In this document: piece after piece, positions 12,393-52,824 of the stretch | Position numbering within the stretch: the stretch's first letter is position 1 | How the letters are laid out: each line of letters starts with the position of its first letter | Assembly (NCBI GenBank): GCA_965221555.1 | Contig: OZ244895.1 | Location: 1,294,803 to 1,358,802, forward strand | Length of the DNA: 64,000 bases | From: Gammaproteobacteria bacterium | Lineage (GTDB): Bacteria; Pseudomonadota; Gammaproteobacteria; HK1 | Direction of reading: 5' to 3' | Program-made: the position numbers and the translations under genes | Notes under the pieces: model-generated | What the model saw: the letters and a program-made list of their open reading frames with translations, nothing else | Databases searched by the model: none | What the model was told of the DNA's origin: nothing

Positions 12393-12525
12393 GGCGATGT
12401 CCGTCGAGCCCCCTCGGAACGGGATGGAAGCTGATGCCTTGCGCGCCCGATGCCGACTACCGGAGCGAAGTGGACGATGGCAGTATCCCTACTGGAGTGC
12501 GGCGGCACAATGAGAGGGACCCGCG

Positions 12526-12903: not shown

Positions 12904-13126
12904 GGGACGCAAGGGCCTCTCAGGGTCTCCTTTCGAGACGGAGAGCGGTAACACCACTCAGTATCCCGTCCGCATCGCTCTGGACAATGTCGGCGAGGCA
13001 GCCCGGGGATTGAGAGATCGAGTTGTCGTTCTGTTTTTAGTGGTATCGACCGGACGGTTGGAGAAGCTTCAGAGGGTAAGGTAAGCGCGAAACTCGGCGA
13101 TGGCCGCAAACGAGAGTCTCGGCTCT

Positions 13127-20669: not shown

Positions 20670-20705
20670 GGTCTTCCTCCCGTTTTTCGATGAGACCTTC
20701 GGTCT

Positions 20706-21494: not shown

Positions 21495-21577
21495 GCGCGA
21501 GGCCTTCTGGATCGAAGTCTTGCGGGTTCGACCGATCCCGGATCCAGACGTGTTTTCCAAGACCCTTCCCATGTCGA

Positions 21578-33404: not shown

Positions 33405-33522
33405 AGGCGCGCACCCGGTATCGAGACACTGGCGACTTCCACACGGAACGAAACGCGTCCGCCGCTCGCGGGGCAGGCTCCTCGTCGACCGTGGCCCCGG
33501 ACGCCGTCAACGCTTTCCACGC

Positions 33523-34644: not shown

Positions 34645-34657
34645 GCGCGCGCCGGAG

Positions 34658-35488
34658 TCAGCGGGTGCGCCGGTAGAGGATGGTGTAGACGAGCAGGAAG
34701 AGCCCGATCATCAGCAGCGAGAAGAGGGTCGATGCGGTGCCCAGCGCGAAGAGCGTGGGGCGAATTCGCTGGGTCATGGACGCATTGATGTCGAGCGGCA
34801 GAGTGTTGTTCTCGCCCGCGAGCAGGGTGGTGCGGGCGAACTCGTCGTAGGAGAGCGTGAAGCCGAAGAGCCCGGCCGCCACGATTCCGGGCGTGATGAG
34901 GGGCAGGGTCACCTCCTTGAAGACGGTCCACTCGCTCGCCCCCATGTCACGGGCCGCCTCCTCCAACGCGCCGTCGAATCGGTTGAACACCGCCATCATG
35001 ACGAGAAAGCCGAAGGGCAGAGTCCACACCACGTGCACGCCGAGACCGGTCGACCACCAGGCGGGAGAGATGCCGACCTGTTTCATAAGGGTCGCCATAC
35101 CCAGGCTGAGCAGGATGCCCGGCACCATGATGCCGGTCATGATGGTGTAGAAGAGCAGGCCGGAGCCCACGAAGCGCTTGCGAAAAGCCATCGCGAACAT
35201 CGTCGAGAAGAGCGCGGTGATCACCATGACGACGAGCGCGAGCACGACGGAGCGCAGCAGCGCGCCCTTCAGGTCGCCGACGCTGGAGGGCTCCAGCAGC
35301 TTGTTCCACCAGTAGAGGCTCACGCCGCGCATGGGAAAGCTCGTTCCCCCTCTGCGCCCCTGGAAGGAGAGGATGAACATCGCGAACATCGGTCCGTAGA
35401 TGAAGAGCAGGAAGAGGACGTAGTAGCCGCTGAAGACCGACTTGATCGCCGCCTTGCGCTTTCGTTCCGCGGTCCAGCGTCGCGCCAT
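34658..35488 (-). CDS. ABC transporter permease (PotC-like)
   Basis: Six TM helices and the EAA motif (EEAARDMGASEWTVFKEVTLPL). Confidence 0.85.
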   Translation of the reverse strand: MARRWTAERKRKAAIKSVFSGYYVLFLLFIYGPMFAMFILSFQGRRGGTSFPMRGVSLYWWNKLLEPSSVGDLKGALLRSVVLALVVMVITALFSTMFAMAFRKRFVGSGLLFYTIMTGIMVPGILLSLGMATLMKQVGISPAWWSTGLGVHVVWTLPFGFLVMMAVFNRFDGALEEAARDMGASEWTVFKEVTLPLITPGIVAAGLFGFTLSYDEFARTTLLAGENNTLPLDINASMTQRIRPTLFALGTASTLFSLLMIGLFLLVYTILYRRTR

Positions 35489-35489
35489 G

Positions 35490-36500
35490 TCAGAGCTGAC
35501 TCCGGATGTCCACGAGGCGCAGGATGATCACCACCCCGATCATCATCGCGAGCATGAGCATCAGCGCGTTGACCGCCGCGAAGGGGTAGTTGGCGATCGC
35601 GTAGTAGTTGAGGATCACCGTCCCCACCGTCGAGGTCTTGCCGCCGTAGACGACGACCGCGGTCGCGAACTCCCCCATGATCATCACGAATATGAAGATC
35701 ATGCCAATCGCCACGCCGGGCAGGGAGAGCGGCACGATGATTTCGCGAAAGATCTGGAAGGCGTTGGCGCCCATGTCCCGCGCCGCCTCCAGGATGTCCT
35801 TGTCGATCTTGGCGAGCGAGAAGAAGATGGGGCCGACGCAGAGCACCACGTAGAGCTGCACCAGCGCCATCGTGTAGCCGAGCTCCGAGTAGAGCAGCAC
35901 GCTCGACGGCTTCTCGAGAATGCCGCTCCCGACGAGCATGCTGTTGAGCAGCCCCCGGCGCCCGAGCATGGGGAGCCAGGCCACCGCCCGGATCAGGTAG
36001 CTCGTCCAGAAGGGCACCATGCACAGCAGAAAGAGCGCCATCTGCCACTTGAAAGACTGGACCTGCATCGCCAGGAAATAGGCGATGGGATAGCCGAGCA
36101 GGAGACAGAAGAACATCACCGTCAGGGTGAAGCGAAAGGTCGACCACAGGGTCTTGATGAAGATGCTGGGGCCGAGGAATCGGTCCGATTCGGGATCGAA
36201 GAACCCTTCCGTCGTGAAGTACTCGCGGTAGTGGTGCAGCGTCGGGTCGGCGGTCATCCCGTGCCCGGTCGACGTCCAGAGGCTGAAGACGATGATGCTG
36301 GCGAGCGGTATGACCAGGAAGAGAAGCAGCCAGGCGACGCCGGGCGCGATCAGCCATCCGACGGGAAACCCCTCCTCGTGCCGGGCTCTCTTCTTCTCTT
36401 CCGCGACGAGTTCCGCCGGCGGCGCGGGCTGCGCGCCGATGAGGCCCCGGTGTTGTGTCTCGACGGTCCGCGCCACCGCTTCCCCCTTACCCGGACGCAC
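35490..36500 (-). CDS. ABC transporter permease (PotB-like)
   Basis: EAA motif (LEAARDMGANAFQIFREIIVPLSLPG); its stop is adjacent to the next permease start. Confidence 0.85.
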   Translation of the reverse strand: MRPGKGEAVARTVETQHRGLIGAQPAPPAELVAEEKKRARHEEGFPVGWLIAPGVAWLLLFLVIPLASIIVFSLWTSTGHGMTADPTLHHYREYFTTEGFFDPESDRFLGPSIFIKTLWSTFRFTLTVMFFCLLLGYPIAYFLAMQVQSFKWQMALFLLCMVPFWTSYLIRAVAWLPMLGRRGLLNSMLVGSGILEKPSSVLLYSELGYTMALVQLYVVLCVGPIFFSLAKIDKDILEAARDMGANAFQIFREIIVPLSLPGVAIGMIFIFVMIMGEFATAVVVYGGKTSTVGTVILNYYAIANYPFAAVNALMLMLAMMIGVVIILRLVDIRSQL

Positions 36501-36680
36501 TCGTGAGCCGGGACCCGGTCCCCGGTCGCGGGAGATGCGAGGACATGGTCATGTCCAGATGCTCGTCGATCGCCGCGCCGTCCACAATGTGATGGCGGCG
36601 GGCCGGGACACTGGCCGGATCCGAGAACGAGCAAGCGGCCGGGACCCTCGATGGCAGGGTCCCGGCGGGAAGCGTGCGTG

Positions 36681-37970
36681 TCAGGCGGCGAGGAACTCGG
36701 TCCAGCGCTTCACGAGATAGTCGTTCTCGTCCATGAGCGAATTCCACACCGCGATGTTGCTGAAGCGGTTCCAGTAGGACCCTCCGTCGCGTACCTCGCC
36801 CTGCTCGACGATGATGGTGCCGAAGGGGTCGGGCAGCTCCTTCGCGGCGGGCTTGCCCTCGTACCAGAAGTCCCACTCTTCCGGTTCGAGATGGTTCTTG
36901 ACGTTCTCGGGCACCGACATGTAATAGCCCTGCCGGGCCACGAAGGCGCCGGGCCATCCGGAGAGCCACCAGTCGATGTACTCGTAGGCCTGGTCGAGCG
37001 CCCTGCCGCTCAGCCGGGCGGAAATCGACAGGCCGCCGTGCCAACCGCGCATGCCTTCCTTGGGGAAGGCGTAGACGCAGGGTACGCCCTCGGCCTTGAT
37101 CGCGGTGACCGCTGGTGACCACATGCTCTCGAGCGCGACTTCTCCGCTCACCATGAGCGTCACCGACTGCCCGAAAGTCTCCCAGAAGGCCCGGAAGTGA
37201 CCGGCTTTCTTCTTCTCGATGAGGAAATCGATGAGGGAGTCGATCTCCTCGCGGGTCATGTTGCCCTTGTCCTTGAATGTCATGAGCCCCATCGCCTCGA
37301 CGGCGAGGGAGGCATCCATCGTTCCGATCTGGGGCACGTTGAGGAGGGCGACGCGGCCGCTGAACTCATCGCTCATGAGATCCGCCCAGCTCTCGATGGG
37401 CCGGCCGGTGTCTTCGGGGTTGTAGCCGATGGAATCCGCGTTGTGCCACCCTGGCACCATGGTGATGTAGCGTGACTCCTCCATGGTGCGCTTGCCGTTC
37501 TCGTCCACCCACAGGTGGCGGAAGGGGGCGTCGCCCTGGCCTTCTCGCGAATCCGGCGTGAGGCGGCCGGTCTTGGCGAGGTTGGTGACCTTGTCCCAGT
37601 CCTTGATCCGGTGGGTGTCGATGGGCTGCCAGACCCCCGCCGGCCACATCACGTCCATGTCGTTGTAGTAGCCTTCCGCGATCTCGTACTGGTCGTTCTG
37701 GTTCAGCATCTTGCCGAACATCGCGCCGTAGCCCAGGGCTTGACCCTTGACCTGGAAGCCCAGATCCAGGGACGCCTGCCCCTGGATCTCGTTTATCACG
37801 CTCACACCCAGGCCGACCGAACGAATGGGATCGTCGGCGCGGACGATGGCGGGGAAGGCGGTGATCGCGGCGCCGGCGGCGGCCGCCTTGGCCGAGGAGC
37901 CGACGAATTCGCGCCGGGACAATCGCTTCGGTTGCGTTCCATCCGAGTTGTGTTCATGCTCTTTGTTCAT
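36681..37970 (-). CDS. ABC transporter periplasmic substrate-binding protein (PotD/PotF-like) with Tat signal
   Basis: Twin-arginine motif SRREFVGSSAKAAAAGAA and an SBP_bac_1/PotD-like fold; 429 aa. Confidence 0.85.
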   Translation of the reverse strand: MNKEHEHNSDGTQPKRLSRREFVGSSAKAAAAGAAITAFPAIVRADDPIRSVGLGVSVINEIQGQASLDLGFQVKGQALGYGAMFGKMLNQNDQYEIAEGYYNDMDVMWPAGVWQPIDTHRIKDWDKVTNLAKTGRLTPDSREGQGDAPFRHLWVDENGKRTMEESRYITMVPGWHNADSIGYNPEDTGRPIESWADLMSDEFSGRVALLNVPQIGTMDASLAVEAMGLMTFKDKGNMTREEIDSLIDFLIEKKKAGHFRAFWETFGQSVTLMVSGEVALESMWSPAVTAIKAEGVPCVYAFPKEGMRGWHGGLSISARLSGRALDQAYEYIDWWLSGWPGAFVARQGYYMSVPENVKNHLEPEEWDFWYEGKPAAKELPDPFGTIIVEQGEVRDGGSYWNRFSNIAVWNSLMDENDYLVKRWTEFLAA

Positions 37971-38175
37971 GTTCTCGCTCCCATTGCTCTAGTGGCTTTC
38001 CACGGGTGGTCACGATCGAATGGGTGGGCCGCGTTCTTGCGCAGGCCGTTGTCGTCGCTGAATCGCCGACCGCTTCGCATGGACCTTAGCTCAAGCCTGC
38101 GGGATTTGGAATCACCGGCCGGGAGCCGGGCGGCGCGATGCGGGTGTGCGCAGTGACTCGCCGGCGCGGGCATTT

Positions 38176-39576
38176 ACGGTGAGCGTTCTCATCAAGAACG
38201 GCAGGGTCGTCACCGCGGTGGACGACTACCATGCCGACATCTACGTCGACGGCGAGACCGTGGCCCTGATCGGGAGGGAGCTTCTGATCGATGCCGATAC
38301 GGTGATCGACGCAACGGGAAAGCTGGTCGTCCCCGGCGGGGTAGACCCCCATACCCATCTCGAGCTTCCCTTCGGGGGCACGATGACCTCCGACACCTTC
38401 GAGACCGGCACCCGGGCCGCGGCCCACGGCGGCACGACCTGCATCATAGATTTCGCGGTGCAGTCGAAAGGCATGTCCACTCTCGAAGCCCTCGACATCT
38501 GGCACGCCAAGGCGGCCGGAAAGACGGCGGTGGACTACGCCTTCCACATGATCATCACCGATCTGCCGCCCCGCCGCGTAGCGGAGATGCGCCGCCTCGC
38601 CGACGAGGGCATCACGAGCTACAAGCTCTTCATGGCGTATCCCGGCGTGATGCTCTCCGATGACGGCACGATCTTTCGGGCTCTGCGCAAGTCGGGCGAA
38701 GACGGCACTCTGGTGTGCATGCACGCGGAGAACGGCATCGTCATCGACGAGCTCGTGCGCATCGCGCTCGAGCAGGGCGAGATCACTCCCCGGCAGCATG
38801 CACTGACCCGGCCCACCCGCCTCGAAGCGGAAGGCGTCCACCGCGCTCTGGCGATCGCCGAAGTGGCCCATGCTCCCATCTACATCGTCCATCTCAGTTG
38901 CTACGATGCCCTCCACGAGCTTCGCCAGGCGCAGGCGAGGGGGGTGATGGCCCACGCGGAGACCTGCCCCCAGTATCTCCTGCTCGACGTCGGCGCCTAC
39001 GACGCGCCCGGCTTCGACGGTGCGAAGTACGTGCTCACTCCGCCCTTGCGCGAAGAGTGGAACCAGGACGAGCTGTGGCGCGCGCTACGCTACAAGTCCC
39101 TCGACGTCATCTCCACCGACCACTGCCCTTTCTGCCTCAAGGAGCAGAAGGAGCTCGGCCGGAGTGATTTCAGCAAGATCCCGAACGGCGGGCCCGGAAT
39201 CGAGAACCGGATGAGTCTCATCTACCACCACGGCGTGAGCGGCGGCCGCATCGACCTCAATCGCTTCGTCGAGCTGACCTCCACCGCGGCGGCCAAGATC
39301 TTCGGACTCTTCCCGAAGAAGGGCACCATCGCGGTGGGGAGCGATGCCGACATCGTGATCTTCGACCCCGAGCGCGAGGAGACGATCAGCGTCCACAACC
39401 CGCGAACCCATCACATGAACATCGACTACTCCGCCTACGAGGGGTTCAGGGTGAAGGGGTACACCGACACGGTGCTCTCCCGCGGGAAGGTCGTCATCGA
39501 TCGCGGCGAGTACGTCGGCAGGGCCGGGGACGGGGTTTTCGTCAAACGCGGTCCCTACGGGGGCATCCACGCCTGA
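38176..39576 (+). CDS. dihydropyrimidinase / D-hydantoinase (cyclic amidohydrolase)
   Basis: Motifs PGGVDPHTHLELPF and the carboxylated-Lys region SYKLFMAY, plus HAENG and STDHCPF. GTG start inferred near 38176. Confidence 0.9.
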   Translation, partial: TVSVLIKNGRVVTAVDDYHADIYVDGETVALIGRELLIDADTVIDATGKLVVPGGVDPHTHLELPFGGTMTSDTFETGTRAAAHGGTTCIIDFAVQSKGMSTLEALDIWHAKAAGKTAVDYAFHMIITDLPPRRVAEMRRLADEGITSYKLFMAYPGVMLSDDGTIFRALRKSGEDGTLVCMHAENGIVIDELVRIALEQGEITPRQHALTRPTRLEAEGVHRALAIAEVAHAPIYIVHLSCYDALHELRQAQARGVMAHAETCPQYLLLDVGAYDAPGFDGAKYVLTPPLREEWNQDELWRALRYKSLDVISTDHCPFCLKEQKELGRSDFSKIPNGGPGIENRMSLIYHHGVSGGRIDLNRFVELTSTAAAKIFGLFPKKGTIAVGSDADIVIFDPEREETISVHNPRTHHMNIDYSAYEGFRVKGYTDTVLSRGKVVIDRGEYVGRAGDGVFVKRGPYGGIHA

Positions 39577-39610
39577 CGCCTCGGGCGTTCCGGGCGCGGG
39601 CGCCGACCCT

Positions 39611-40078
39611 TCAGGCCGCTTGGGTCTCCGTGCGGATGACCTTCAAGAGCCAGAAGATCACACAGAAGATGGCGGTGACGACGACCAGCGCGACCAGTGC
39701 TCCGAGCCGCTTGCCGAACTCCGCGTCTATCGCGTACCCCTCGTTCAGCAAGTGAACGCAGAGGATCTGGAGAGCCTGAAGGGTGGCGCCGCCGGCGAGA
39801 AGGATGGCGGTGAACGTGGAGCCGCGAAGCGAGCTCAGCACCATGGCGTCGACGCTGTGGCGTTTCGCGATGTAGACGCGATAGGCGTGCCAGTGGTAGG
39901 CGCAGAATCCGATGATGCCGACGATGAGGGCGGCCCAGAAGATCACGTTGCCAAAGCTGATGCCGTTGATGACGCGCACGAAGATCTGCTCGAAGGGCGC
40001 GGAGTAGTAGAGAAAGATCAGCACGATGATGAACAGGATGAAACCGACCACGGTCCAGAACCACTGCCATCCGCTCAT
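39611..40078 (-). CDS. small integral membrane protein, paralog of 25444..25953
   Basis: About 4 TM helices. The motifs WFWTVVGFILFIIVLIFLYY...FGNVIFWAAL...LAGGATLQALQ are shared with the other copy. Confidence 0.55.
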   Translation of the reverse strand: MSGWQWFWTVVGFILFIIVLIFLYYSAPFEQIFVRVINGISFGNVIFWAALIVGIIGFCAYHWHAYRVYIAKRHSVDAMVLSSLRGSTFTAILLAGGATLQALQILCVHLLNEGYAIDAEFGKRLGALVALVVVTAIFCVIFWLLKVIRTETQAA

Positions 40079-40421
40079 GCCGCTCTCCGCTGTGTCGTTG
40101 CGACCGGAACGCGCCGCTTCACCTTTTTGCCACCGACTTGTTCCGGCTCGCAGGGCGCCGGGACATCAAGGCCCGGCTCGCCGCCATTTCTAACCGATCG
40201 CTTCGCGGCCATCAATTGCGCGCCCGGCCCCGCCGCAACGCTCACCGCCTGACGTCTGGGTACGCGCACCGCCGGTGCGGAAAGGGTCGAATGCGAGCCG
40301 GAGTGCGCGACAGTGCGGTTGAAGTCCGCTTGCGCATCCCGATTCCCCGACCCCCCGGGCCGCTGCCGGTATCTGCGCGAATGTGCCTGACCGTGCTTCG
40401 CGCATCGCGCAAACACCGCGC

Positions 40422-41465
40422 TCAGGCGCCGCCCGGCGTGGCCACGACGAGAAAGATCACGTACAGGACCACGAAGACTGTGTCCTTGATCGCGGGAATC
40501 AGGTGCCGTTGGACGCCTCTGCGGGCGATGAGGCTGATGATCTCGATGGCGAAGAAGACCAGTCCAAGAATGAAGATTGGCCATATCGTGCTCCACCAGG
40601 AGACCTCGGCCGGCGCCTCGCTCTCGTGGAGCCAGCGCCACAGCGCCAGGAGGAGGGGCAGGAGAGCGAGGTAGCCGGTGGCGACGAGAAAGCGTCCCCG
40701 GAACTGCGTCCGGTCGAGCAGCCAGAACACCGCAAAGAAAGCCGCGATGTGGACCAGATCCCAGAAGAAGGCGCGGTAGCCCTCCCGATTGTCGAGTTGC
40801 TCGAGGTTCAGGAAACCCAGAAGCAGCGCGACGACGATGAGATCGCAGAGCAGCCACTCCCGCAACCCCTCCGCCCGGCCCTTCGGGGTCCAGCTTCGCG
40901 TCGCCTTGTCGAAGAGGAGGACGAGGGCGACCGCGAAGCTCGCCGGATACAGCACCCGAAGGACGAGAACCGCCTGCCCGGCGGGATCCAGGTACGTCCA
41001 TCCGAGAGTGAGGATCCCGAGCGCGAGCAGCAGCAAGCCGAGGAGCCGGGCGCCGGCCGGACTTCCCATCGTCGCGGACTCCGCGGCGGCGGCGGCATCC
41101 GGGGCGGCGCCGGTCTCGCTCTGTCCGACTACCCGCGCGACGAGAAACACGATGAGGAAGACCAGCGCCAGCGCGGCGGCGGCCAGCATGACTCCCAGGA
41201 ACACCCCGGACCGGACCTCCGCCCGCCAGCCCGCGCCCACACCAGACTCCGGACTCCACTGCACGGCGACGGCGAGTGCGAGCACGACCAGCACCACGAG
41301 CAGCGCGGTCGCGAGCAACACCTCGAACCACCGGGGCTTGGGAGCCCGCGCGCTCTGCATCGCTTCCCGGCCACGCTCTCGTGCGAGGTGCAGGGCCGCG
41401 ATCACCACGAGCACCGTAGCGGCGGCCGCGAGGACGACGAGCGCGACGATGGCAAGCGCGGTCAT
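40422..41465 (-). CDS. hypothetical polytopic membrane protein (about 8 TM helices)
   Basis: Consistently hydrophobic helices across 347 aa, with no domain call. An overlapping Arg-rich antisense ORF was discounted. Confidence 0.55.
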   Translation of the reverse strand: MTALAIVALVVLAAAATVLVVIAALHLARERGREAMQSARAPKPRWFEVLLATALLVVLVVLALAVAVQWSPESGVGAGWRAEVRSGVFLGVMLAAAALALVFLIVFLVARVVGQSETGAAPDAAAAAESATMGSPAGARLLGLLLLALGILTLGWTYLDPAGQAVLVLRVLYPASFAVALVLLFDKATRSWTPKGRAEGLREWLLCDLIVVALLLGFLNLEQLDNREGYRAFFWDLVHIAAFFAVFWLLDRTQFRGRFLVATGYLALLPLLLALWRWLHESEAPAEVSWWSTIWPIFILGLVFFAIEIISLIARRGVQRHLIPAIKDTVFVVLYVIFLVVATPGGA

Positions 41466-41469
41466 GCGT

Positions 41470-41745
41470 GCCGCTCCGTCAGCTTGTGTACTTCAGGGAT
41501 CTTCACGAAGGATGTCGTGATGGCAGGAAGCACGGACCGAAGGACGCACAAGGGTGAGCCGGAAACAGGCGAAGCCCCGGTGGCGAGCGGGCGAGCCAGG
41601 GATGGCTTGCCCGGGCCGGAAAGCGTCCCCCAAGGACCGCGCGGCGATTCGGGTGGCCGACACCACGTCGAAAGGGTTGGATGGGGTGCGGTCCGCAACC
41701 GCGAGCATATTGGCGTCCACAGCGAAAAATCAGTGAGATGTCGAG
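41470..41745 (-). repeat. MITE/REP-like element, copy D (long variant, about 275 bp, minus orientation), abutting the crcB stop
   Basis: The reverse complement matches copy A/C cores (GGACGCCAATATGCTCGCGGTTGCGG... and CGCCTGTTTCCGGCTC...GTCCGTGCTTCCTGCCATCAC) and shares the GGCCCGGGCAAGCCATCC insert segment with copy B. Confidence 0.8.
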
Positions 41746-42123
41746 TCAGAGCCAGCGCGTCGCCCACATGCCGGCGAGCACCGCCGCGAGACAGAGCACG
41801 TTGTTGGCCAGCACATTCGCGGCGGCGGCGCCCCATTGGCCCTGCTCGAAGAGGCGCAGTGTCTCGTAGGCATAGCTTGAGAAGGTGGTGAACGAGCCGC
41901 AGAAGCCTACCGCGATGAGCAGGCGCAGCGCGGGATCGCTCACCGCCCTTGCGCTTGCCAGGGCGAAGAAGAAGCCGAGCACCAGGCTCCCGCACACGTT
42001 GGCAATCAGGGTGCCGTGGGGCCAGGCGGGGTCAAGGTAGCGGGCGCTCAGCAGGCTCACCCCGTAGCGGGCGTTCGCACCGGCGAAGGCCCCGCCTCCC
42101 ACCAGCATCATCTCCTTAAGCAT
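41746..42123 (-). CDS. crcB: fluoride ion channel CrcB/Fluc
   Basis: 125 aa with 4 TM helices. Carries the CrcB signature GFCGSFTTFSS and the LIANVCGSLVLGFF motif. Confidence 0.9.
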   Translation of the reverse strand: MLKEMMLVGGGAFAGANARYGVSLLSARYLDPAWPHGTLIANVCGSLVLGFFFALASARAVSDPALRLLIAVGFCGSFTTFSSYAYETLRLFEQGQWGAAAANVLANNVLCLAAVLAGMWATRWL

Positions 42124-42147
42124 CGTCGCCGTCCCCCGGCCACATCC

Positions 42148-42393
42148 TCAGCGCGCCCCGCTCCAGTCACGCTTGATCCCCCGTCGCGTCCCGAGTTCGC
42201 CGCTCTCGTCCATGCAGATATCGACCCGGTAGCCGCCGCGTCGCGCCGCCGACAGGGCGCTGCGAATCCGGTCACGTGCTTGCGGAGCGGCGTTCTTCAT
42301 CTTCGCGAGACCGAGGATGGTCAGCCCGTAGTCGCCGCATTGGGGGCAGGAGACTTTGAGGTAGGGTGCATGCTGGCCTTTCCACACCCGCAC
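42148..42393 (-). CDS. small zinc-ribbon protein (81 aa, CPQCGDYG motif), hypothetical
   Basis: Cys pair CPQC with downstream Cys; the compact ORF sits immediately upstream of crcB on the same strand. Confidence 0.45.
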   Translation of the reverse strand: MRVWKGQHAPYLKVSCPQCGDYGLTILGLAKMKNAAPQARDRIRSALSAARRGGYRVDICMDESGELGTRRGIKRDWSGAR

Positions 42394-42512
42394 CGGGCCC
42401 TCGCAGACGACGCAGCGGTTTATGGTGCTTCCCCTTGAATGTGGCTCGCACCGGCGGCCGTGCCCGGAAGGCGCAACGCGGGCTGCGGTGACCGAAGGGT
42501 ACGCGATGGTGG

Positions 42513-42780
42513 CCCGCGATTTTCACCGATTTCCTGTCGCCCACGCCAATATGGTCGCGGTTGCGAGCCTTCATCCGTCGCGGCGCTTTCGACTTCGTGT
42601 TGGCTACCGGCAACGCTTGGCATTCCCGGCTTCGCTTTCCGGCCGGGCAAGCCATCCGCGGCCGGCCCGCGCGCAGGGAAGTCCGCGTCACCGGCGCTGC
42701 GTCTGTTACCAGCTCGCGGTTGCGTGTCTTTCTTGCTCGGTGCGTCAAAGCATCGCGCCATGTGGGCTCCCGATCGGCCC
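42513..42780 (+). repeat. MITE/REP-like element, copy B (long variant, right end degenerate)
   Basis: Left end CCCGCGATTTTCACCGATTTCC, core CCACGCCAATATGGTCGCGGTTGCGAGCC and GGCCGGGCAAGCCATCC segment. No clean right-hand inverted repeat. Confidence 0.75.
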
Positions 42781-42789
42781 CCCAGCCCT

Positions 42790-44346
42790 TCAGGTGGGAC
42801 TCGGGGCGCGGTCCTGCAAGGTCTTCCACGCGCGCTCGGCGAAACCGGCTCCGGCCTGTTCGTAGTAGTTGTAGGTCGTGGTGCAACCGCAGGTGAGGAG
42901 TTCGCCGGCCTCCTCGGGGTAGACGTTGGTCGCGCTCAGGAGCCCCTGGTAACCGGCGCGGCGGATCTCGGTGATCGCGAAGCGCTTCGCTTCGAGGTCG
43001 GGCACCGCCAGCAGCACCGCGTTCACGCCGTCGAGACGCAGGCGCTGCCACAGGTCCGGGTCCTCGGCATCGCCGTAGACCACGCGGCGCCCTTCGGCGA
43101 GATGCCGCTGGACCTCCGCCGGATCCGAGTCCAGGCCGACGACCCGCATCCCTCGCTCCTTGAGCAGCTCGTAGGCGCCGAGGCCGACCCGGCCCATTCC
43201 GAAGATCATGACGTCCGCCGCGCCGATGGAGAGCGGCTCGTCGTCGGGATGCCGTTGTCTACGTTCGAGGCGCGAGACGAAGGGCGAGAGCCGGACATAG
43301 ATGGTGTGCGAGGCGTGATTGAGCGGAGCCGAGATCGCGAACGAGAGTGCGACCGTGATCGCCAGGGCGACCACCCAGCTCTCGGGCAGCAGGCCGCGCG
43401 CGGCCACCGCCTGGACCACGATCAGCCCGAACTCGCTGTAGTTGGTCAGCGCGAGGCCCGCCAGCACCCCGCTGCGCGCCCGGAGCTTGAACCCGATGAG
43501 CAGGCAGTAGAACAGCAGACCCTTCAGAGGCAGCAGGGCGAGGGCGAGGAGCGCGAAGACCAGTATCTCGCCGTCGGGAAGCCCGGACATGCCGATAAGC
43601 AGAAAGAACCCGACGAGAAAGGCTTCCTTCAGTCCCCACAGCGCGTCTTGCAGCTCTTGCGCCTTCGGATGGTCCGCGAGCAGGCTGCCGAGCACCAGCG
43701 CACCGAGCTCGCCGCTCAGTCCGAGCGCTTCGAAGCCGAAACCTCCCGCGAGCGCGAGGCCCATGCCGAGCAGCAGCAGGATCTCCCCGCGCCCGGCGAC
43801 GTCGAGGAGCCGGTGGACGAGGCGACGCGCCGGGAGGAGCGCGAGCAGCGCGATGGCCCACGGCGACGGCACGGTACCCAGCGATAGCCCGATGACCGCG
43901 ATGGCGGCCAGATCCTGGATGATGAGGATCCCGATCGCGACCCGGCCGTGAAATGCGCGAAGCTCGCGTTTCTCGTCGAGCGACTTCGCCGCGACCACCG
44001 TGCTCGAGAAGCCGAGCGCGCCGGCGACGAGAAGCGCGACGACCCAGCCCGTACCGAGTCCATAGACGAGGAGAACGGCGAAAAACCCGGTGGAAAGCGC
44101 GAGATGGACGAGGGCGGTTCCCCACACTTCGGGGCGCACGATGTTGCGCAGGCGCACCTTCATTCCCACCGTGAACAACATGAGCAGCACGCCGGCATGC
44201 GCGATGGGTTCAAGCTCGTCGGGTGCGGCGAACCCACCCGCATTGAGAACGAATCCCGCCGCGAGAAAGCCGACGAGAGGCGGCATGCCAAGCGAGCGGG
44301 CGGCAAGCCCCAGGACGAACGCGCAGGCGATGAAGATCCCGGCCAT
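42790..44346 (-). CDS. monovalent cation:proton antiporter (CPA2, Kef-type) with C-terminal TrkA-N/RCK domain
   Basis: About 12 TM Na_H_Exchanger-like region plus a Rossmann RCK region (VVGLDSDPAEV...VYGDAEDPD). Confidence 0.85.
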   Translation of the reverse strand: MAGIFIACAFVLGLAARSLGMPPLVGFLAAGFVLNAGGFAAPDELEPIAHAGVLLMLFTVGMKVRLRNIVRPEVWGTALVHLALSTGFFAVLLVYGLGTGWVVALLVAGALGFSSTVVAAKSLDEKRELRAFHGRVAIGILIIQDLAAIAVIGLSLGTVPSPWAIALLALLPARRLVHRLLDVAGRGEILLLLGMGLALAGGFGFEALGLSGELGALVLGSLLADHPKAQELQDALWGLKEAFLVGFFLLIGMSGLPDGEILVFALLALALLPLKGLLFYCLLIGFKLRARSGVLAGLALTNYSEFGLIVVQAVAARGLLPESWVVALAITVALSFAISAPLNHASHTIYVRLSPFVSRLERRQRHPDDEPLSIGAADVMIFGMGRVGLGAYELLKERGMRVVGLDSDPAEVQRHLAEGRRVVYGDAEDPDLWQRLRLDGVNAVLLAVPDLEAKRFAITEIRRAGYQGLLSATNVYPEEAGELLTCGCTTTYNYYEQAGAGFAERAWKTLQDRAPSPT

Positions 44347-44495
44347 GGTCAGCCTTCAGTCGTCATGTCTCGCCAATTCACCGCCGCGAGCGCACATCCG
44401 CCGGCATGTGCGGCGTTGCGGGTGCGCCTTCGCTTCGCGGGTTGGTGAAACATGGCGGCTGACGCTCGAGCTCCGGGCGGAATGTGGTGGCGGAT

Positions 44496-46121
44496 CTAGG
44501 GGACCGGATGCGCAGCGCGCGCGCCGCGCTCGCGCAGGAACTCGTTCAGTACCCGCCCGGTGTGGGAACGGCGGGTGCGGCGGGCGACCTGGGCGGGCGA
44601 ACCGCTCGCGACGACGCGCCCGCCGCCGCCGCCGCCTTCGGGGCCGAGATCGATGACGTGGTCCGCCTCCGCGATGACGTCGAGATTGTGCTCGATGACC
44701 ACCACCGTGTTGCCGGCATCGACGAGGCGATGGAGGACTTCGACGAGCTTCGCGACATCGGCCATGTGCAGGCCGATGGTGGGCTCGTCCAGCACGTAGA
44801 GGGAGTGTCCGTCTCGTTTCGGGGCGGCTTTGCCCTTGCTGTTCCGGGTGCTCACGCGCACCGGATCCGCGGGCCGCGTCTTCGCGAGCTCGGTGACGAG
44901 CTTGATGCGCTGCGCTTCGCCGCCGCTCAGGGTGGGACTCGGCTGGCCGAGGCAGAGGTAGCCGAGCCCGACATCCTGCAGGAGGCGAAGCGAGTGGTGC
45001 ACGGAGCGGTGCGCGGCGAAGAACTCGACCGCCTGGTCCACGTTCATCGCGAGGATGTCGGCAATGCTCCGATCGCGGAAGGATACCGACAGGGTCTCGG
45101 GATTGAAGCGGGCTCCCCCGCAGGCGTCGCAGGCGACCCTCACGTCGGGGAGGAAGCTCATCGCGATGCGGCGCATCCCCTGTCCTTCGCAGACCCCGCA
45201 TCGTCCCTCGCTCACATTGAACGAGAAACGTCCCGGCCCGTAGCCCCGAATGCGACTCTCGGTGGTTTCGGCGAAGAGGCGCCGAATGTGATCCATCACC
45301 CCGACGTAGGTGGCGGGGCAGGAGCGGGGTGTCTTTCCGATCGGGGTCTGGTCGACTTCCAGTACTCGCGAGACCCCTTCCCACCCGCTGAGCTCCCGGC
45401 ATCCCCGCAGGGGCGGGAGACGGCTTCCCCGGCGCCGGCGGGCGCCCAGGCGCCGGGCGAGGTTGTCGAGGAGCACCGCGCGCACCAGGGAGCTCTTCCC
45501 GCTGCCGCTCACTCCGGTCACGCAGGTCATCCGTGCGAGCGGAAAGCGCACGGTCAGGCCGTCGAGGTTGTTGAGGTCGGCGCCCGCGATCTGGATCTCG
45601 CCGTTCTCTGCGTTTCCGCCGGAGCCGTTGCGCGTCCGCCTCGCGTGGCGCAGCGGTTCGGCGAGAAAGCGCCCGGTCACCGAACGCGGGTCCTCGAGCA
45701 GCTCCTCGACACTGCCCGCGGCGACCACCTGACCTCCGTTGCGGCCCGCGCCGGGCCCCAGGTCGATGACGTGCTCGGCCTGCCGGATGGTCTCCTCGTC
45801 GTGCTCCACCACGACCACCGTATTCCCCTTCTTCTCCAGGTGTCGCAGGGTATCGAGCAGCATCCGGTTGTCGCGGGTGTGCAGGCCGATGGTGGGCTCG
45901 TCGAGGATGTAGCACACGCCGCGCAGGTTGGAGCCGAGCGATGCGGCGAGGCGGATGCGCTGCGCCTCGCCCCCGCTCAGGGTCGGTGCGGCGCGGTCGA
46001 GGGTGAGGTACCCGAGTCCGACCTGGCGCAGGAAATGCAGGCGCGAGCGGAGTTCACTCTGGATGTCGCGCGCGATCGCTTCCTCTCGGGGAGAGAGCTC
46101 CACCGCATCCAGGAAGCGTTT
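44496..46121 (-). pseudogene. continuation of the same UvrA-like gene in the -1 frame (C-terminal ABC module of the second unit)
   Basis: The frame becomes UvrA-like exactly where the other frame fails: RFLDAVELSPREEAIARDIQSELRSRLHFLRQVGLGYLTLDR...LSGGEAQRIRLA...GVSGSGKSSLV...LSGGEAQRIKLV...VIEHNLDVI. A 1-nt indel in a GCAAAC run near 46119-46121 would restore a single roughly 1,890-aa ORF. Confidence 0.7.
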
Positions 46122-49100
46122 GCGTCCTCCACCGAGAGGGCGGTGAGTTCGGCGATGCTCAAGTCCTGGAAGCGAACCGCCAGTGCTTCCGGGCGCAGGC
46201 GCTCCCCGTTGCAGCTCCGGCAGACGCGGTCCTCCGCCTCCCACCACTCGTTCCACCAGCGTTCCTCGCCGGTCTGCTCCGCGTCGAAGCCCTCGAGCTC
46301 GAGCCCGGTGCCGTAGCAGCTCCCGCACCAGCCATGCTTGGAGTTGAAGGAGAACAGGCGGGGGTCCGGGTCGGGGAAGCTCCGACCGCAGCTCGGACAG
46401 GCTCGGCGGGTGGAGAAGATGCGCTCGTCGCCGCCGCGCTCGGCATCGTGGTCCTCGCATGCCAGCTTGACGAGGCCTTTCCCGAAGTCCAGGGCGCGGG
46501 CGAGCAGCTCCCGCAGCTCCGGTTCCCGGGCGGGGTCGACCTCGGTCTCGCCGGCGGAGAGTTCGATGTCGTGTTCCCGGTACCGGTCGAGTCGCGGCCA
46601 CGCATCGGTCGGCAACCACTTTCCGTCCACCCGCAAGTGGGAGAAGCCCTTGCCCGCCGCCCACTTCGCGAGGTCGGTGTAGTAGCCCTTGCGGGCCACC
46701 ACCAGTGGCGCGAGCAGCGACACCCTGCGCCCCCGATAGTCCGCGAGGATGCGCGCGAGCACCGCCTCCGGCGTCTGGGCCTCGATCGCGAGGCCGCAGT
46801 CCGGGCAGTGCCAGACCCCGAGCTTCACGAAGAGAAGGCGCAGGAAGTGGTAGAGCTCGGTGAGGGTGGCGACGGTGCTCTTGCGTCCGCCCTGGCTGGT
46901 GCGCTGCTCGATCGCCACCGTGGGCGGCACGCCGAGGATGGCGTCCGCGTCGGGACGCGACGCGGGCTGCACGAACTGTCGCGCATAGGCGTTCAGCGAT
47001 TCGAGATAGCGGCGCTGACCCTCCGCGAACAGGAGATCGAACGCGACGGTGCTCTTGCCGCTTCCGCTGACGCCGGTGATGACGGTGAAGCGGTCGCGCG
47101 GGATGTCGAGGTCGATGTTCTTGAGATTGTGCTCGCGCGCCCCGTGCACCGATATTGCGTTGTTGCGTGCGCTGCTTCGGTATGGGGCGGGGTCCTCCTC
47201 GATCCGCACCGCGTCTACCGCGGCGTGCTCCGCCGCCGCGAGCGCGGCGCCGGTATGGCTGCGGGGGCAGCGCGCGAGGTCGGCGGGCGGGCCTGCGAAG
47301 ATCAGCTCGCCACCCGCCTCTCCCCCTTCCGGTCCGAGGTCGATGACCCAGTCCGCGGCCCGGATAACGTCGAGGTTGTGTTCGATGACCACCAGAGAGT
47401 GGCCTTCGCCGACGAGGCGGCGCAGCGCCCCGAGAAGGGTGGCGATGTCGTCGAAGTGAAGCCCGGTGGTCGGCTCGTCGAGAAGGAAGAGGGTGCCCCG
47501 GTCCCGGACCGCGCCCGATTTGCGGGCTTTGGCGAGGTGCCCGGCGAGCTTGAGGCGTTGTGCCTCGCCTCCGCTCAGGGAGGGCACCGGCTGGCCGAGC
47601 CGCATGTATTCGAGACCGACCGCAAGCAGAGGTCCGAGCGCACGTTCCACTTCCGGGTGCTCGCGGAAGAAGGCGATCGCCTGCGCCGCGGTCATCGCGA
47701 GCACGTCGGCGATGGAGCAGGCCCTGCCGCCTCCGCCCCGCCCCGCATCCGGCGGCAGCAGCGTGACTTCCAGTACCTCGGGGCGGTAGCGCCGGCCGTC
47801 GCAGTCCGGGCAGCGCAGGTACACATCGCTCAGGAACTGCATTTCGATGTGCTCGAAGCCGCTGCCCCCACAGGTGGGGCAGCGCCCCTGACCCGAGTTG
47901 AAGCTGAAGGTCCCCGCGGTGTAGCCGCGCTCGACCGCGAGGGGCTCGCGCGCGAACACCTTGCGGATGGCATCCAGCGCGCCGACGTAGCTGGCGGAGT
48001 TGGAACGCGCGGTCTTGCCGATCGGGGACTGGTCGATCATCACCACGTCCTCGAGGCGCTCGTGGCCGCGGATCTCGCGGTGCGCGCCCGCCGGGTCCGA
48101 CGCCTTGCCGCCGAGCTTGCGAAGCGCGCGGTAGCAGATGTCTTCCACCAGTGTCGACTTGCCGGAGCCGCTCACCCCGGTGACGCAGACGAGGCGCCGC
48201 AACGGGATGCGCACATCGACATTCTTCAGATTGCGTTCGCTCGCGCCGAGGACTTCAAGGCAGCCGGCGTCCTGGGCGTTGTCCGGGGCGCGGTGCTCCG
48301 AGACGCGCTTCTCGTCTCGCAGGTACCGTGCGGTCAGTGATGTGCCGTGCGCGAGCAGCGCGGCCGGCGCTCCGAAGAACACCACCTCGCCGCCGCGCTC
48401 CCCCGGCCCCGGTCCGATGTCGAGGACCCGGTCGGCGGCCAGCATGACCTGCGCATCGTGCTCGACCACGAGCAGGGTGTTGCCGGCATCGCGAAGCCGG
48501 TGCAGGACCTCGACCACGCGTCGCATGTCGCGCGCGTGCAGCCCGATGCTCGGTTCGTCGAGCACGAAGAGGGCGTTGACGAGCGAGGTGCCGAGCGCGG
48601 TGGTCAGGTTGATGCGTTGCACCTCGCCTCCGCTCAGGGTGCGCGACTGACGGTCGAGGGTGAGGTAGCCGAGCCCCACGCTCACGAGATAGCGAAGTCG
48701 GGCGCGAATCTCGTCGAGGAGGAGGTCGGTGGCCTCGTCCATCGGCGCGGGAAGATGGACCGTTTCGAAGAGACGGGCGCAGGCTTCGATGGGAAGCAGC
48801 GCCACATCGTGGATGGTGAGCCCGGGCAGCTCGCGGAAACGGGCCTCGTCGAGGGTGCTGCCCACGGGTCGAAATCGGGGCGTATCGCGAAGCGCGCGCT
48901 GCGCATCGGCGGCATCGCCCAGGCGCCAGGCGAGCGCCGCCGGCTTGAGGCGGGCGCCCGCGCACTCCGGGCAGGGGTTGTAGGCCCGGTACTTCGAGAG
49001 CAGCACCCGGATGTGCATCTTGTAGCTCTTGGTCTCGAGCCAGGCGAAGAAGAGGCGCACTCCGTACCAGACGCCCTTGCGCCATTTGCCCTCGCTCTCA

Positions 49101-50170
49101 CCTTCGATCACGAAGCGGCGGTGGCGCGCCGCGAGACGCCCCCAGGGGCGGTCCGTCGGCACTTCGCGCTCGCGCGCGTAGCGCATCAGGTCGCGCTGAC
49201 AGGAGCGGTAGCTCTTGCTCTGCCAGACCTTGATCGCGCCCTCCGCGAGGCTGAGGCGCGGGTCCGGAATGACGAGGTCGTAGTCGATATCCATGGTGCG
49301 GCCGAAACCGCGACAGGTCTCGCAGGCGCCGACCGGAGAGTTGAAGGAGAAGAGGTTGGGGACCGGGTCCTCGTAGCGCTCGCCGCACTCAGGGCAGGCG
49401 AGCGCGCTCGAATAGTCCCGGGCCTCGACCGCTTCGCCGTCTGAGTCGAGGAGATGCACGCGAAGTGTCCCCTGGCCTCGCCGCAGTGCCGCCTCGAGCG
49501 CCTCGGCGATGCGCCCGCGGTTCGCGGGAGTGAGGCGCACCCGATCCTGGACGACTTCGAGGCGGTCGCGTTCCCGTCGGTGGATGCGCGCGTAACCCTG
49601 GCGGGCGAGCAGATGTTCAATCTCCCGCGGGCTGAAGTTCTCCGGCACGCGCAGGGTGAAGGTGATGGCGATGCGCGGTGGCGACTCGCCGGCGCCGAAA
49701 CGCCGGAGCAGGTCTTCGATGATGCTGTCGGGGGAGTCCCGGCGGATCGCGTCGCCGCAGCCCTGGCAGTAGAGGAGCGAGGCGCGCGCGAAGAGCAGCT
49801 TGAGGTGATCGTTCAGCTCCGTCATGGTGCCCACGGTGGAGCGCGAAGTGCGCACCGGGTTGGTCTGATCGATCGCGATGGCAGGCGGGATCCCCTCGAT
49901 GGCGTCGCAGCTCGGCCGGTCCATGCGGTCCAGAAACTGGCGCGCATAGGGAGAGAAAGTCTCCACGTAGCGGCGCTGCCCCTCCGAGTACACGGTGTCG
50001 AAGGCGAGCGAGGACTTGCCCGAACCGCTCACGCCGGTAATCACCGTCAGCTCATTGAGCGGCAGACGCAGGTCCAGGTTCTTGAGGTTGTTCTGCCGGG
50101 CGCCCCGGATGTGGATGAACCCGGGCGAGGGTCCGGCGCGGCGCGGCGCCTGCGCTCCCGGATCGTTCAT
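46119..50170 (-). CDS. UvrA-like ABC ATPase, tandem-duplicated type: complete first UvrA-like unit plus the start of a second unit, up to a frameshift
   Basis: Starts MNDPGAQAP...IHIRGARQNNLKNLDL with Walker A TGVSGSGKSSLAFDT. Two ABC modules and Zn-finger CxxC pairs are present. A second unit then begins ISVHGAREHNLKNIDLDIP...TGVSGSGKSTVAFD. The frame degenerates into junk after ...ELTALSVEDA. Confidence 0.8.
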
Positions 50171-51414
50171 CGGGAACGGGAAGGATCCGAGGTGTCGCCC
50201 CGCTCCAGCACTTCGAGGCGCAGCAGGTCGAGCAGGCTGATGGTCGCGTACTGGCGTACGCGAACGCGGTCTCCGGGCAGGTGCACCTGCTCGTGGCGGG
50301 ACCCGTTCGGGGTGGCGATGGCGAGGTGAACGGTGCCGCGCGCCTCCTCCTCCCGCGACGCGGCAAACGCATTCGCGAGCCCGATGTCCGCCGCGAAGCG
50401 GGCGCGGGCAGCCTGCGCGAGCTCGTGCACCGCGGCCGGGCCCACCACGCCGCGCGCGCCCACGGCCTTCGCCGCCTCGTCGTTGGGGATGACGAGAACG
50501 CCCGCGAGCACCTCCTCGACCCCGCGCACCGCGCACAGCCGCGCGCTCATCAGGCCACCGGTCGCGCCCTCGGCAAGCGCCAGGCGCTGGCCCCGCCCCG
50601 CGAGCATCGCGACGACGGTGGACTCCATGTTGTCGTCGTCGACCGCGAACACGATCCGGCCGAGTCGTTCGCGCAGCCGCTCCTCCTCCTGCCCAAGCAG
50701 GCGCTCGGCCGCTTCCGTGTCTTCCGCCTTGGCGGTGATGCGTACCTTGATGCCCTCGACGCCGCTCGCGAGGAAGGCGAGCGTCGGGTTGCCGATGCGG
50801 TCGAGCTGCGCGATGCGATCGGCGAGCGTCTCCGCGAGTCCGGACTCGCTCTCGCCCCAGGTGCGCAGCACCCGGCTCCTGATCACCGCGCGCAGGCCTG
50901 CGCGGCGGCGCAGGTCGGCGCGAATGGTGCCGTCGAACATCTCGCGCAGCTCGTAGGGCACTCCCGGCACCGCGTAGATCACCCGCTCGCCCACCGGGCA
51001 GACAAGCCCGGGGGCGGTGCCCGGCATCTGGTCGATGATCGCGGCGCCCGCGGGAACGTCGGCCTGGCGCAGGTTGTTCTCCGGCATTCGGCGCCCTCGG
51101 GCGGCGAAGCGCGCCCGGATACGCTCTCCGATTCCGGGGTGGCGCTCAAGCTCCACCCCCATGACCTCCGCGATCGCCTCGCGGGTGATGTCGTCCTGGG
51201 TCGGGCCGAGTCCGCCGCAGACGATCACCGCCTCGCTGCGCGAGAGCGCCAGGCGCAGGCTCGCCACGATCCGTTCGTGGTTGTCGCCGACCTTGGTCTG
51301 GAAGTGCGAGTCGATGCCGGCGAGCGCGAGCTGCTCGCCGAGCCAGGAAGAGTTCGTATCGACGATCTGACCGAGCAGCAGCTCGGTGCCGATCGCCACC
51401 ACCTCACAGCGCAT
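50167..51414 (-). CDS. cinA: CinA-family competence/damage-inducible protein (MoCF-binding N-domain plus PncC-like NMN deamidase C-domain)
   Basis: N-terminal MRCEVVAIGTELLLGQIVDTNSSWL and GGLGPTQDD, with a C-terminal CinA domain. Its stop overlaps the uvrA-like start (ATGA). Confidence 0.9.
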   Translation of the reverse strand: MRCEVVAIGTELLLGQIVDTNSSWLGEQLALAGIDSHFQTKVGDNHERIVASLRLALSRSEAVIVCGGLGPTQDDITREAIAEVMGVELERHPGIGERIRARFAARGRRMPENNLRQADVPAGAAIIDQMPGTAPGLVCPVGERVIYAVPGVPYELREMFDGTIRADLRRRAGLRAVIRSRVLRTWGESESGLAETLADRIAQLDRIGNPTLAFLASGVEGIKVRITAKAEDTEAAERLLGQEEERLRERLGRIVFAVDDDNMESTVVAMLAGRGQRLALAEGATGGLMSARLCAVRGVEEVLAGVLVIPNDEAAKAVGARGVVGPAAVHELAQAARARFAADIGLANAFAASREEEARGTVHLAIATPNGSRHEQVHLPGDRVRVRQYATISLLDLLRLEVLERGDTSDPSRSR

Positions 51415-51689
51415 CGGAATCCTGCCGGGAAAGGGCGAGTGTCCCCGAGGCTTCGCACTCTTCGCAAGCGAGGCGGGGGGGCGGCGCGACGTCGTGAGCC
51501 GCTTCCTGGACCGAGAGGCCGGCTACCGACAAGTTCACGATGCGCACGGGGGGATTGCGCAGTGGCTCGCGGACGGGCGCCCCACCGTGGAGCCGGAACG
51601 GTAGGGGCGGGGTCCCGGAGACGAGGCTGCCCTTCGTTCCCCCACCTCCTGCGTCCGTGAATGCAGGGTGGGTCCAGAAGCGGAGGATT

Positions 51690-51905
51690 CCGCTTGCCGA
51701 CAAGGCACTTTGGCCGCTGACCGAGATATCTGCCCGACACTCGTCGCGAAGGCGCCTGGATGCCGTGGTGGTGGACCGCACGGAATCGACAGACGCGCAA
51801 TGCGTAGCCGAATACTACGCCGTACGGCCTCATGCGGGAGTACGACCCGCAACCGCGAGCAGGTTGGCGTCCACCCGCCGAGAAATCGTTGAGACATCGC
51901 AGCTG
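51690..51905 (-). repeat. MITE/REP-like element, copy E (degenerate, minus orientation)
   Basis: The reverse complement contains ATGTCTCAACGATTTCTCGGCGGGTGGACGCCAACCTGCTCGCGGTTGCGGG and ATTGCGCGTCTGTCGATTCCGTGCGG...CACGGCATCCAGGCGCC, matching copies A and C. Confidence 0.7.
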
Positions 51906-51912
51906 GGCGCGC

Positions 51913-52824
51913 TCAGTCCGGCGCGTGGTGCGCGTGCCAGTGGCGCGCGATGTCGACGCGCCGGCAGATCCAGACGTCCGGGCGCTCCTGCACGTAGTCG
52001 AGAAAGCGCGCCAGCGCCGCGCTCCGTCCGGGGCGTCCCACCAGCCGGCAGTGGAGTCCGACCGACATCATCTTTGGCTGCGTTGCTCCTTCCCGGTACA
52101 GGACATCGAAGGTGTCCTTGAGGTAGGTGAAGAACTGGTCTCCGCAGTTGAAGCCTTGGGTGCTGGCAAACCGCATGTCGTTGCTGTCGAGGGTGTAGGG
52201 GATGACGAGATGAGGCTCGCCCCGCTCACTTTGCAGCCAGTAGGGAAGGTCGTCGGCATAGGAGTCGGAGTCATACAGAAACCCGCCCGCCTCCATCACC
52301 AGGCGCCGGGTGTTGGGGCTCGTGCGTCCGGTGTACCAGCCGAGCGGCCGGGCGCCGGTGCAGCGGGAATGGATGTCGATGGCCTTGCGAATGTGTTCGC
52401 GTTCTTCCTCCTCGCTCATGTGCTGGTACTCGATCCAGCGGTATCCATGACTCGCGATCTCCCAGTGCGCTTCGTTCATCGCCGCCACCGCCTCGGGGTT
52501 GCGTTCGAGCGCCATCGCCACCCCGTACACGGTCACCGGCACCGCGCGCTCGCTGAACATGCGGTGCAGACGCCAGAATCCGGCCCGGCTTCCGTACTCG
52601 TAGACTGACTCCATGTTCATGTGCCGTGCGCCCGGTAACGGGACCGCGCCCATGATCTCGGAGAGAAAGGTCTCCGACGCCGCGTCCCCGTGGAGAATGC
52701 AGTTCTCTGCGCCCTCTTCGTAGTTGATCACGAACTGCAGCGCGAGCCGCGCCTCGCCCGGCCACCGCGGATGGGGTGGATTGCGGCCGTAGCCGCACAT
52801 GTCTCTGGGGTAGGTTTCGGTCAT
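51913..52824 (-). CDS. puuE: PuuE-type allantoinase (polysaccharide deacetylase fold)
   Basis: Near-canonical PuuE N-terminus MTETYPRDMCGYG...PPHPRWPGEARLALQFVINYEEGAENCILHGDAASE. Internal ATG start chosen. Confidence 0.8.
   Translation of the reverse strand: MTETYPRDMCGYGRNPPHPRWPGEARLALQFVINYEEGAENCILHGDAASETFLSEIMGAVPLPGARHMNMESVYEYGSRAGFWRLHRMFSERAVPVTVYGVAMALERNPEAVAAMNEAHWEIASHGYRWIEYQHMSEEEEREHIRKAIDIHSRCTGARPLGWYTGRTSPNTRRLVMEAGGFLYDSDSYADDLPYWLQSERGEPHLVIPYTLDSNDMRFASTQGFNCGDQFFTYLKDTFDVLYREGATQPKMMSVGLHCRLVGRPGRSAALARFLDYVQERPDVWICRRVDIARHWHAHHAPD

Follow-up and report, generated by a model that had tools for sequence, protein, structure and literature searches.

Whether a double-length uvrA gene that is split by a single-nucleotide frameshift is truly broken, or only appears so in its deposited sequence, is the question raised by the locus described here. 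The gene lies on the minus strand of a stretch of 64,000 nucleotides (nt) from a gammaproteobacterial contig (OZ244895.1, positions 1,294,803 to 1,358,802; G+C content about 68%), hereafter called the window, and it directly follows a cinA gene. As deposited, its open reading frame (ORF) is interrupted at 46119-46121; once one base is added, it encodes a protein of 1,891 amino acids (aa) that joins two UvrA units in a single chain. The gene is probably intact, with the frameshift being a one-base undercall of a four-adenine run in a long-read assembly. The positions of cinA, the fusion gene and the frame change, as given in an earlier reading of the letters and their ORFs without database searches (the sequence-only reading), were all correct on re-examination, as was the prediction of a tandem UvrA-UvrA fusion of about 1,890 aa. 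The coordinates of all features are collected in Table 1.

Two reading frames make up the gene in its deposited form. Frame A, starting at the ATG at 50170, encodes two UvrA-like units as far as ...LTALSVEDA and then runs into 47 nonsense codons; frame B (FLDAVELSPREEAIARD...) is uninterrupted to the stop codon at 44498..44496. The junction lies in the sequence GCAAAC at 46123..46118, whose A-run occupies 46121..46119. In the window, the Ala codon GCA is followed by only 5 nt (AACGC) before the Phe codon TTC, although room for two codons would be expected; insertion of one base restores a single ORF. The public gene calls reflect the same split: one of 1,397 aa (P0124) ends in exactly the nonsense tail of frame A, and another of 473 aa (P0122) corresponds to the C-terminal piece, both being placed on the source contig of 3,854,272 nt (NCBI, ENA). 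Ten further proteins of the window occur solely on this contig.

Three independent checks support this position of the break, in agreement with the single-nucleotide frame change described in the sequence-only reading. With the closest ortholog as query, tblastn returned two high-scoring segment pairs, one in frame -1 and the other in frame -3, which abut at residue 1383 (46118/46121). A position-specific, frame-aware hidden Markov model (HMM), which was used in place of a frame plot based only on the G+C content of third codon positions (noisy, because antisense shadow frames score high as well), switched frames at 46116/46117. Among the 22 same-strand frame changes in the window, the one in the double uvrA gene is the only zero-gap change whose junction has no stop codon; the upstream frame terminates 138 nt past it.

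The evidence that carries the preferred reading comes from a second contig of the same strain, which was found by looking up the exact sequence of the Na+/H+ exchanger protein encoded nearby. This contig (ena:ERZ26695579:ctg104556_2.63x_l, loci L083/L084) has a length of 19,276 nt and, according to its name, a coverage of 2.63x. Over its whole length it aligns with window positions 50448..31175 with no mismatches and four 1-nt gaps, all of which are length differences in short one-base runs. At the break, the second contig reads GCAAAACGC and is in frame, as against GCAAACGC in the window. Its additional A restores a Lys codon, and Lys fits, given that the segment ...EAKEFF... of canonical UvrA aligns with the repaired ...DAKRFL.... 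The sequence-only reading had listed a sequencing error in an A-run among several options and had named an extra A giving one continuous ORF as the sign of a simple assembly error. This is essentially what the same-strain contig carries, since it has the extra A and reads through, and the sequencing error is now the favoured option.

At the remaining three sites the situation is reversed, with the second contig broken and the window in frame, and this kind of data therefore makes run-length errors. All three indels of L083 itself lie less than 2 kb from the contig end, where they break up cinA and uvrA, public gene calls of 552 and 1,296 aa being the outcome; in this data set, the ends of low-coverage contigs are prone to error. 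It is very unlikely that a chance insertion error in the second contig hit the exact break site and restored the frame there, and we infer that the window rather than the second contig is wrong at the A-run. Across 19 kb, the two contigs are separated by run-length indels and not by a single substitution, a pattern that marks consensus errors of long reads, and the window's single detectable frame break in 64 kb fits a sporadic residual error of this type. A single contig of 3,854,272 nt from an uncultured organism points to a long-read assembly. In this assembly, a true sequence of GAC GCA AAA CGC TTC (D-A-K-R-F) would have been called with AAA in place of AAAA.

The related loci are in line with an intact gene. 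An uninterrupted ORF of at least 1,750 codons was found in all 81 usable loci, and none of the 82 aligned sequences is gapped in the junction columns. In the window, the approximately 540 codons after the break are free of stop codons, and the identity to the ortholog at locus L001 is 91.4% after the break as compared with 88.3% before it. The closest intact orthologs (P0001 at locus L002 and P0002 at locus L001, 89% identical) read GAC GC(A/G) AAC CGC TTC (D-A-N-R-F). A missing C, as suggested by the AAC CGC of these sequences, was considered as the lost base and dropped, since the same-strain contig has AAAA. An exact-pattern scan of JGI metagenomes around the break, allowing either AAA or AAAA, gave no match.

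Several points weigh against an undercall. Read data are not available, so that the AAA of the window could be genuine. The size of the source contig (3.85 Mb) suggests good coverage, and accurate long reads at high coverage seldom give consensus errors in a run of 4 nt. The second contig was covered only very thinly and, over the same 4.3 kb, is laden with errors of its own; moreover, both contigs may stem from related samples, and their independence is not established. The protein mechanism proposed below is an inference only, and no experimental paper on a double UvrA was found. The chief alternative is that the deletion is real, such that the dominant strain would have suffered a very recent loss of function (a nascent pseudogene), while the AAAA allele still segregates and was caught in the low-coverage contig. 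It gains from the presumably good coverage of the window's contig and from the lack of any other frame break in 64 kb, which indicates that the assembly is not generally error-prone. Real indels, too, occur most often in short one-base runs, and real gene loss has occurred next door in comparison with L001 and L002, where a TPP-enzyme gene, most of a rhodanese gene and an opp-like operon are retained that are missing here. However, with no substitution in 19.3 kb and no secondary damage in the roughly 540 downstream codons, any inactivation must be extremely recent; the contigs differ by run-length indels only, a typical error signature, and every ortholog examined is intact. Taken on these grounds, a real deletion is a possibility to be kept in mind, but a doubtful one. 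If all run-length differences were real, the population would hold several independent frameshift alleles of the double uvrA gene, arising either from selected inactivation that is still under way or from a DNA-repair paralog being switched on and off. Three of the differing sites lie inside the double uvrA gene and one in the adjoining cinA, with none in the 15 kb beyond; such a scenario is nonetheless quite improbable.

Two further explanations would leave the deletion in place and the gene functional, and both are very hard to sustain. A programmed shift was among the options of the sequence-only reading; either -1 ribosomal frameshifting or slippage of transcription at GCA AAC would restore the full-length protein and make the short product a regulated alternative. 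A -1 shift after AAC would indeed yield D-A-N-R-F-L, the exact sequence of the orthologs, and AAC is known as an A-site slip codon in some viral heptamers. However, C GCA AAC is not an X XXY YYZ heptamer, and GCA in the P site cannot re-pair with CGC. Folding of the 93 nt downstream is no more stable than that of their shuffles (minimum free energy -32.3 kcal/mol as compared with a shuffle mean of -33.65; z +0.38), and slippage of the polymerase would need far more than three A's. The shift is absent from all 81 other loci, and the same-strain contig is simply in frame. With neither a slippery heptamer nor a downstream structure nor conservation, programmed frameshifting is close to refuted. 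Equally improbable is the production of two separate functional polypeptides, an N-terminal one of about 1,350 aa and a C-terminal one of about 470-535 aa, that reassemble. The public gene calls on the source contig are split in this manner (1,397 aa and 473 aa), and an in-frame GTG at 46103 lies directly past the break. Yet, the GGAGGA motif upstream of this GTG is about 22 nt away and thus too distant for a ribosome-binding site, the N-terminal product would carry 47 nonsense residues at its end, and the split would fall inside ATPase site I of unit 2, between Walker A and the signature and Walker B motifs. No ortholog is split at this position. The undercall in an intact gene therefore remains the preferred reading, and the protein is described below in its repaired form.

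The repaired protein passes both UvrA equivalog models, with 1988.6 bits for NF001503 (cut-off 1147) and 1931.1 bits for TIGR00630 (cut-off 729.8), and solved UvrA structures align with its two units over their full lengths (E 7e-223 and 1.6e-245). Each unit comprises two ABC ATPase modules and three Cys4 Zn modules. All four sets of Walker A, signature (LSGGE), Walker B and H-loop motifs are intact, and all 24 Cys positions of the Zn modules were located, those of modules 2 and 3 being invariant or nearly so in 82 homologs. The part of unit 2 that follows the break holds the signature, Walker B and H-loop of ATPase site I, the whole of ATPase module II and Zn module 3.

The sequence-only reading had considered unit 1 to lack an insert at the UvrB-binding position, which proved wrong. 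The Pfam model PF17760 finds no match in unit 1, but alignment with the UvrB-binding-type domain of unit 2 by hhalign (probability 97.8%, E 1e-12, 130 columns, with a deletion of about 15 residues) identified a diverged homologous insert of about 120 aa, which is bounded by CxxC pairs and approximately 13-15 residues shorter than the canonical domain. The insertion domain shows the opposite pattern. In unit 2, where it resides in Zn module 2, it has shrunk to 31 aa, and the alignment with PDB 9gxk omits residues 305-426 of canonical UvrA. This short insert measures 31 aa in 121 of 121 close homologs and 15-45 aa in the 82 wider homologs, whereas the insertion domain of unit 1 measures 108-117 aa across homologs. 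Judged from these alignments, the asymmetry of the double-UvrA family is conserved, with the insertion domain found only in unit 1 and a Pfam-recognisable UvrB-binding domain only in unit 2. Approximately 26 of the 82 aligned family members (L046-L082 and others) show a further peculiarity, in that Zn module 1 of unit 1 is devoid of its cysteines (C135 replaced by D, C138 by T or S, C262 by S) and C1125 of unit 2 is replaced by D. Zinc binding by module 1 of unit 1 has probably been lost in these lineages.

The tandem fusion had been regarded as rare in the sequence-only reading. However, more than 120 intact public proteins (1,826-2,021 aa) match the repaired ORF with 65-89% identity over 99% of its length and, where named, carry the designation 'excinuclease ABC subunit UvrA'. 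Relatives of the fusion were found in at least 568 species-representative genomes, and it is therefore common. Its carriers span Gammaproteobacteria, Burkholderiales (with many Paraburkholderia, and Alcaligenes), Spirochaetia, Lentisphaeria, Verrucomicrobia and Fibrobacterota. The public double-length proteins P0001-P0120 (about 1,830-2,020 aa), which stem from Gammaproteobacteria, Burkholderiales, Nitrospirota, Manganitrophus, Geobacter, Spirochaetia and others, share the architecture and the insert lengths of the window protein; their ORFs are uninterrupted, whereas the window copy is one base short. On this comparison, the window gene is an ordinary member of a known, already annotated and widespread double-UvrA family. 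A search of the available library on 'class III' or tandem UvrA found no paper on a double UvrA, be it experimental or descriptive; the 'class III' label is that of the sequence-only reading.

Other UvrA types differ from this family in defined ways. Canonical class I UvrA (Geobacillus stearothermophilus 2R6F; PDB 9GXK) resembles each unit from end to end, including the two ABC ATPase and three Zn modules, but it does not join two units in one chain; compared with it, the UvrB-binding-type domain is diverged in unit 1 of the window protein and the insertion/DNA-binding domain of about 115 aa is absent from unit 2. The chlamydial double UvrA (NCBIfam NF001885 / PRK00635, 1,809 profile positions) is a curated double-length UvrA that is matched by the window protein. 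However, the NF001885 score of 1,083.3 bits lies far under the cut-off of 3,054, which points to a different fusion lineage and rules out membership in the chlamydial type. Class II UvrA proteins (Deinococcus radiodurans UvrA2, 2VF7; Ecm16, 7SH1; DrrC), paralogs that occur beside the repair UvrA, match both window units. Proteins of class IIa have neither the first Zn finger nor the UvrB-binding domain, and roles of class II paralogs such as Ecm16 and DrrC have been described (PMC9328131). Unlike class IIa proteins, both window units keep an insert at the UvrB-binding position; class II membership was ruled out by the match of unit 2 to PF17760 (E 2.8e-24) together with the 120-aa insert of unit 1.

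The product of the upstream gene was assigned to CinA by the subfamily model TIGR00200 (282.5 bits; cut-off 243) and by a match to PRK00549 (E 2.4e-102), and it is 87% identical to CinA of L001 and L002. The TGA of cinA (50169..50167) shares bases with the ATG of the double uvrA gene (50170..50168), forming an ATGA overlap of 4 nt. The intact orthologous loci L001 and L002 show the same overlap in their gene calls, so that the gene order around P0001 and P0002 is like that in the window; most other lineages have no adjoining cinA. The sequence-only reading had emphasised the tight coupling to cinA. The overlap is real, but the adjacency is confined to this lineage, being found in 4 of 84 loci (L001, L002, L003 and the same-strain L083), with CinA within 10 kb in 0 of 79 other loci. 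The linkage is therefore a local operon arrangement and not a property of the family. In this lineage, cinA and the double uvrA gene would be co-transcribed and probably translationally coupled via the ATGA overlap.

No support was obtained for the link to SOS/LexA control that the sequence-only reading had raised. Using the gammaproteobacterial consensus only (CTGT-N8-ACAG), no LexA box was detected upstream of cinA (51415..51915), with up to one mismatch allowed, and the whole window holds 6 matches, as compared with 12 expected by chance. Scans of 44300..52000 for sigma-70-like promoters and intrinsic terminators yielded no site. A search for conserved neighbours across 82 loci revealed no partner gene, none occurring in more than 16 of the 82; the best candidate, an ABC-F-type ATPase, reached 16/82 in mixed orientation.

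The surroundings of the operon have been rearranged. In L001 and L002, a gene for a TPP-dependent enzyme and a rhodanese gene lie between cinA and a polysaccharide deacetylase gene; the window is devoid of the former and of the first 94 rhodanese codons. In a tblastn search of the window, the L001 rhodanese matched with residues 95-135 only (63% identity, E 5e-15), and the TPP-enzyme gene of L001/L002 gave no match. A deletion of about 2 kb in this lineage therefore accounts for the missing TPP-enzyme gene and the 94 missing rhodanese codons. On the other side, L001 and L002 carry a four-gene opp-like ABC transporter operon (SBP_bac_5, two permeases and a double ATPase) between the double uvrA gene and the Na+/H+ exchanger gene. 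This operon is absent from the window (44347-44495), in which the exchanger gene lies about 150 nt past uvrA.

Table 1. Features of the cinA-uvrA locus, with positions counted from the first letter of the window.
Feature	Position	Strand	Basis or remark
Rhodanese gene remnant (C-terminal 41 codons), cinA upstream spacer	51473..51595	+	tblastn
cinA (CinA-family, NMN-deamidase-related, 415 aa)	51414..50167	-	ORF; NCBIfam TIGR00200 and PRK00549
ATGA overlap, cinA stop / double-uvrA start	50170..50167	-	Read directly from the sequence
UvrA-UvrA fusion gene (as broken in the window)	50170..44496	-	Two reading frames joined at A-run 46121..46119
UvrA unit 1 (aa 1-1000)	47171..50170	-	PDB 2r6f match along whole unit, E 7e-223
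Diverged UvrB-binding-type insert of unit 1 (aa 139-258, ~120 aa)	49397..49756	-	hhalign against unit-2 domain
Full insertion/DNA-binding domain of unit 1 (aa 287-399, 113 aa)	48974..49312	-	Pfam UvrA_DNA-bind PF17755 match
UvrA unit 2 before the break (aa 1001-1350): Walker A, UvrB-binding domain, Zn module 2	46122..47170	-	PF17760, PDB 9gxk
Canonical UvrB-binding domain of unit 2 (aa 1126-1257)	46400..46795	-	Pfam UvrA_inter PF17760, E 2.8e-24
A-run (AAA) at the break	46121..46119	-	Window GAGGACGCAAA-CGCTTCC; same-strain L083/L084 GAGGACGCAAAACGCTTCC (AAAA)
Out-of-frame tail of frame A (47 nonsense codons)	46117..45977	-	Stop at 45979..45977
UvrA unit 2 after the break (aa 1352-1891, repaired protein)	44496..46118	-	Translation; PDB 9gxk aligned straight through the junction
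Run-length difference (cinA), L083 position 6	~50443		Window GGG, second contig GGGG; window in frame
Run-length difference, L083 position 454	49996		Window C, second contig CC; window in frame
Run-length difference, L083 position 1976	48475		Window CCC, second contig CC; window in frame
Run-length difference	46119-46121		Window AAA, second contig AAAA; second contig in frame (D-A-K-R-F-L)

Several observations were made elsewhere in the window. By the frame HMM, a segment of 1.2 kb (12403-13597) has low coding potential. It spans the low-complexity extension at the C-terminus of a hydantoinase B/oxoprolinase-like ORF of 737 aa, whose relatives measure 722 aa, and contains on the plus strand an ORF of 125 aa (12526-12903) with an aspartyl-protease-like ADTGA motif. 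The G+C content drops to 0.605 at 20001-22000, as compared with 0.64-0.72 elsewhere in the window, and this segment may have been acquired recently. Neither tRNA or tmRNA genes nor Rfam families at the gathering threshold were detected in the window.

Canonical UvrA is a homodimer with four ATPase sites. By analogy, the double UvrA chain would probably act as a single-chain, covalent and asymmetric 'pseudo-dimer' that senses DNA damage or distortion, with all four ATPase sites supplied by one polypeptide. Since the canonical UvrB-binding domain is found only in unit 2, recruitment of UvrB would be expected to proceed through this one site. The finding carries little weight as a discovery, and its practical value lies in a correction of the record: the locus, now divided into public calls of 1,397 and 473 aa, is to be read as one intact gene. 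A modest side interest lies in the existence of a very widespread double-UvrA family with a conserved asymmetry between its two units.

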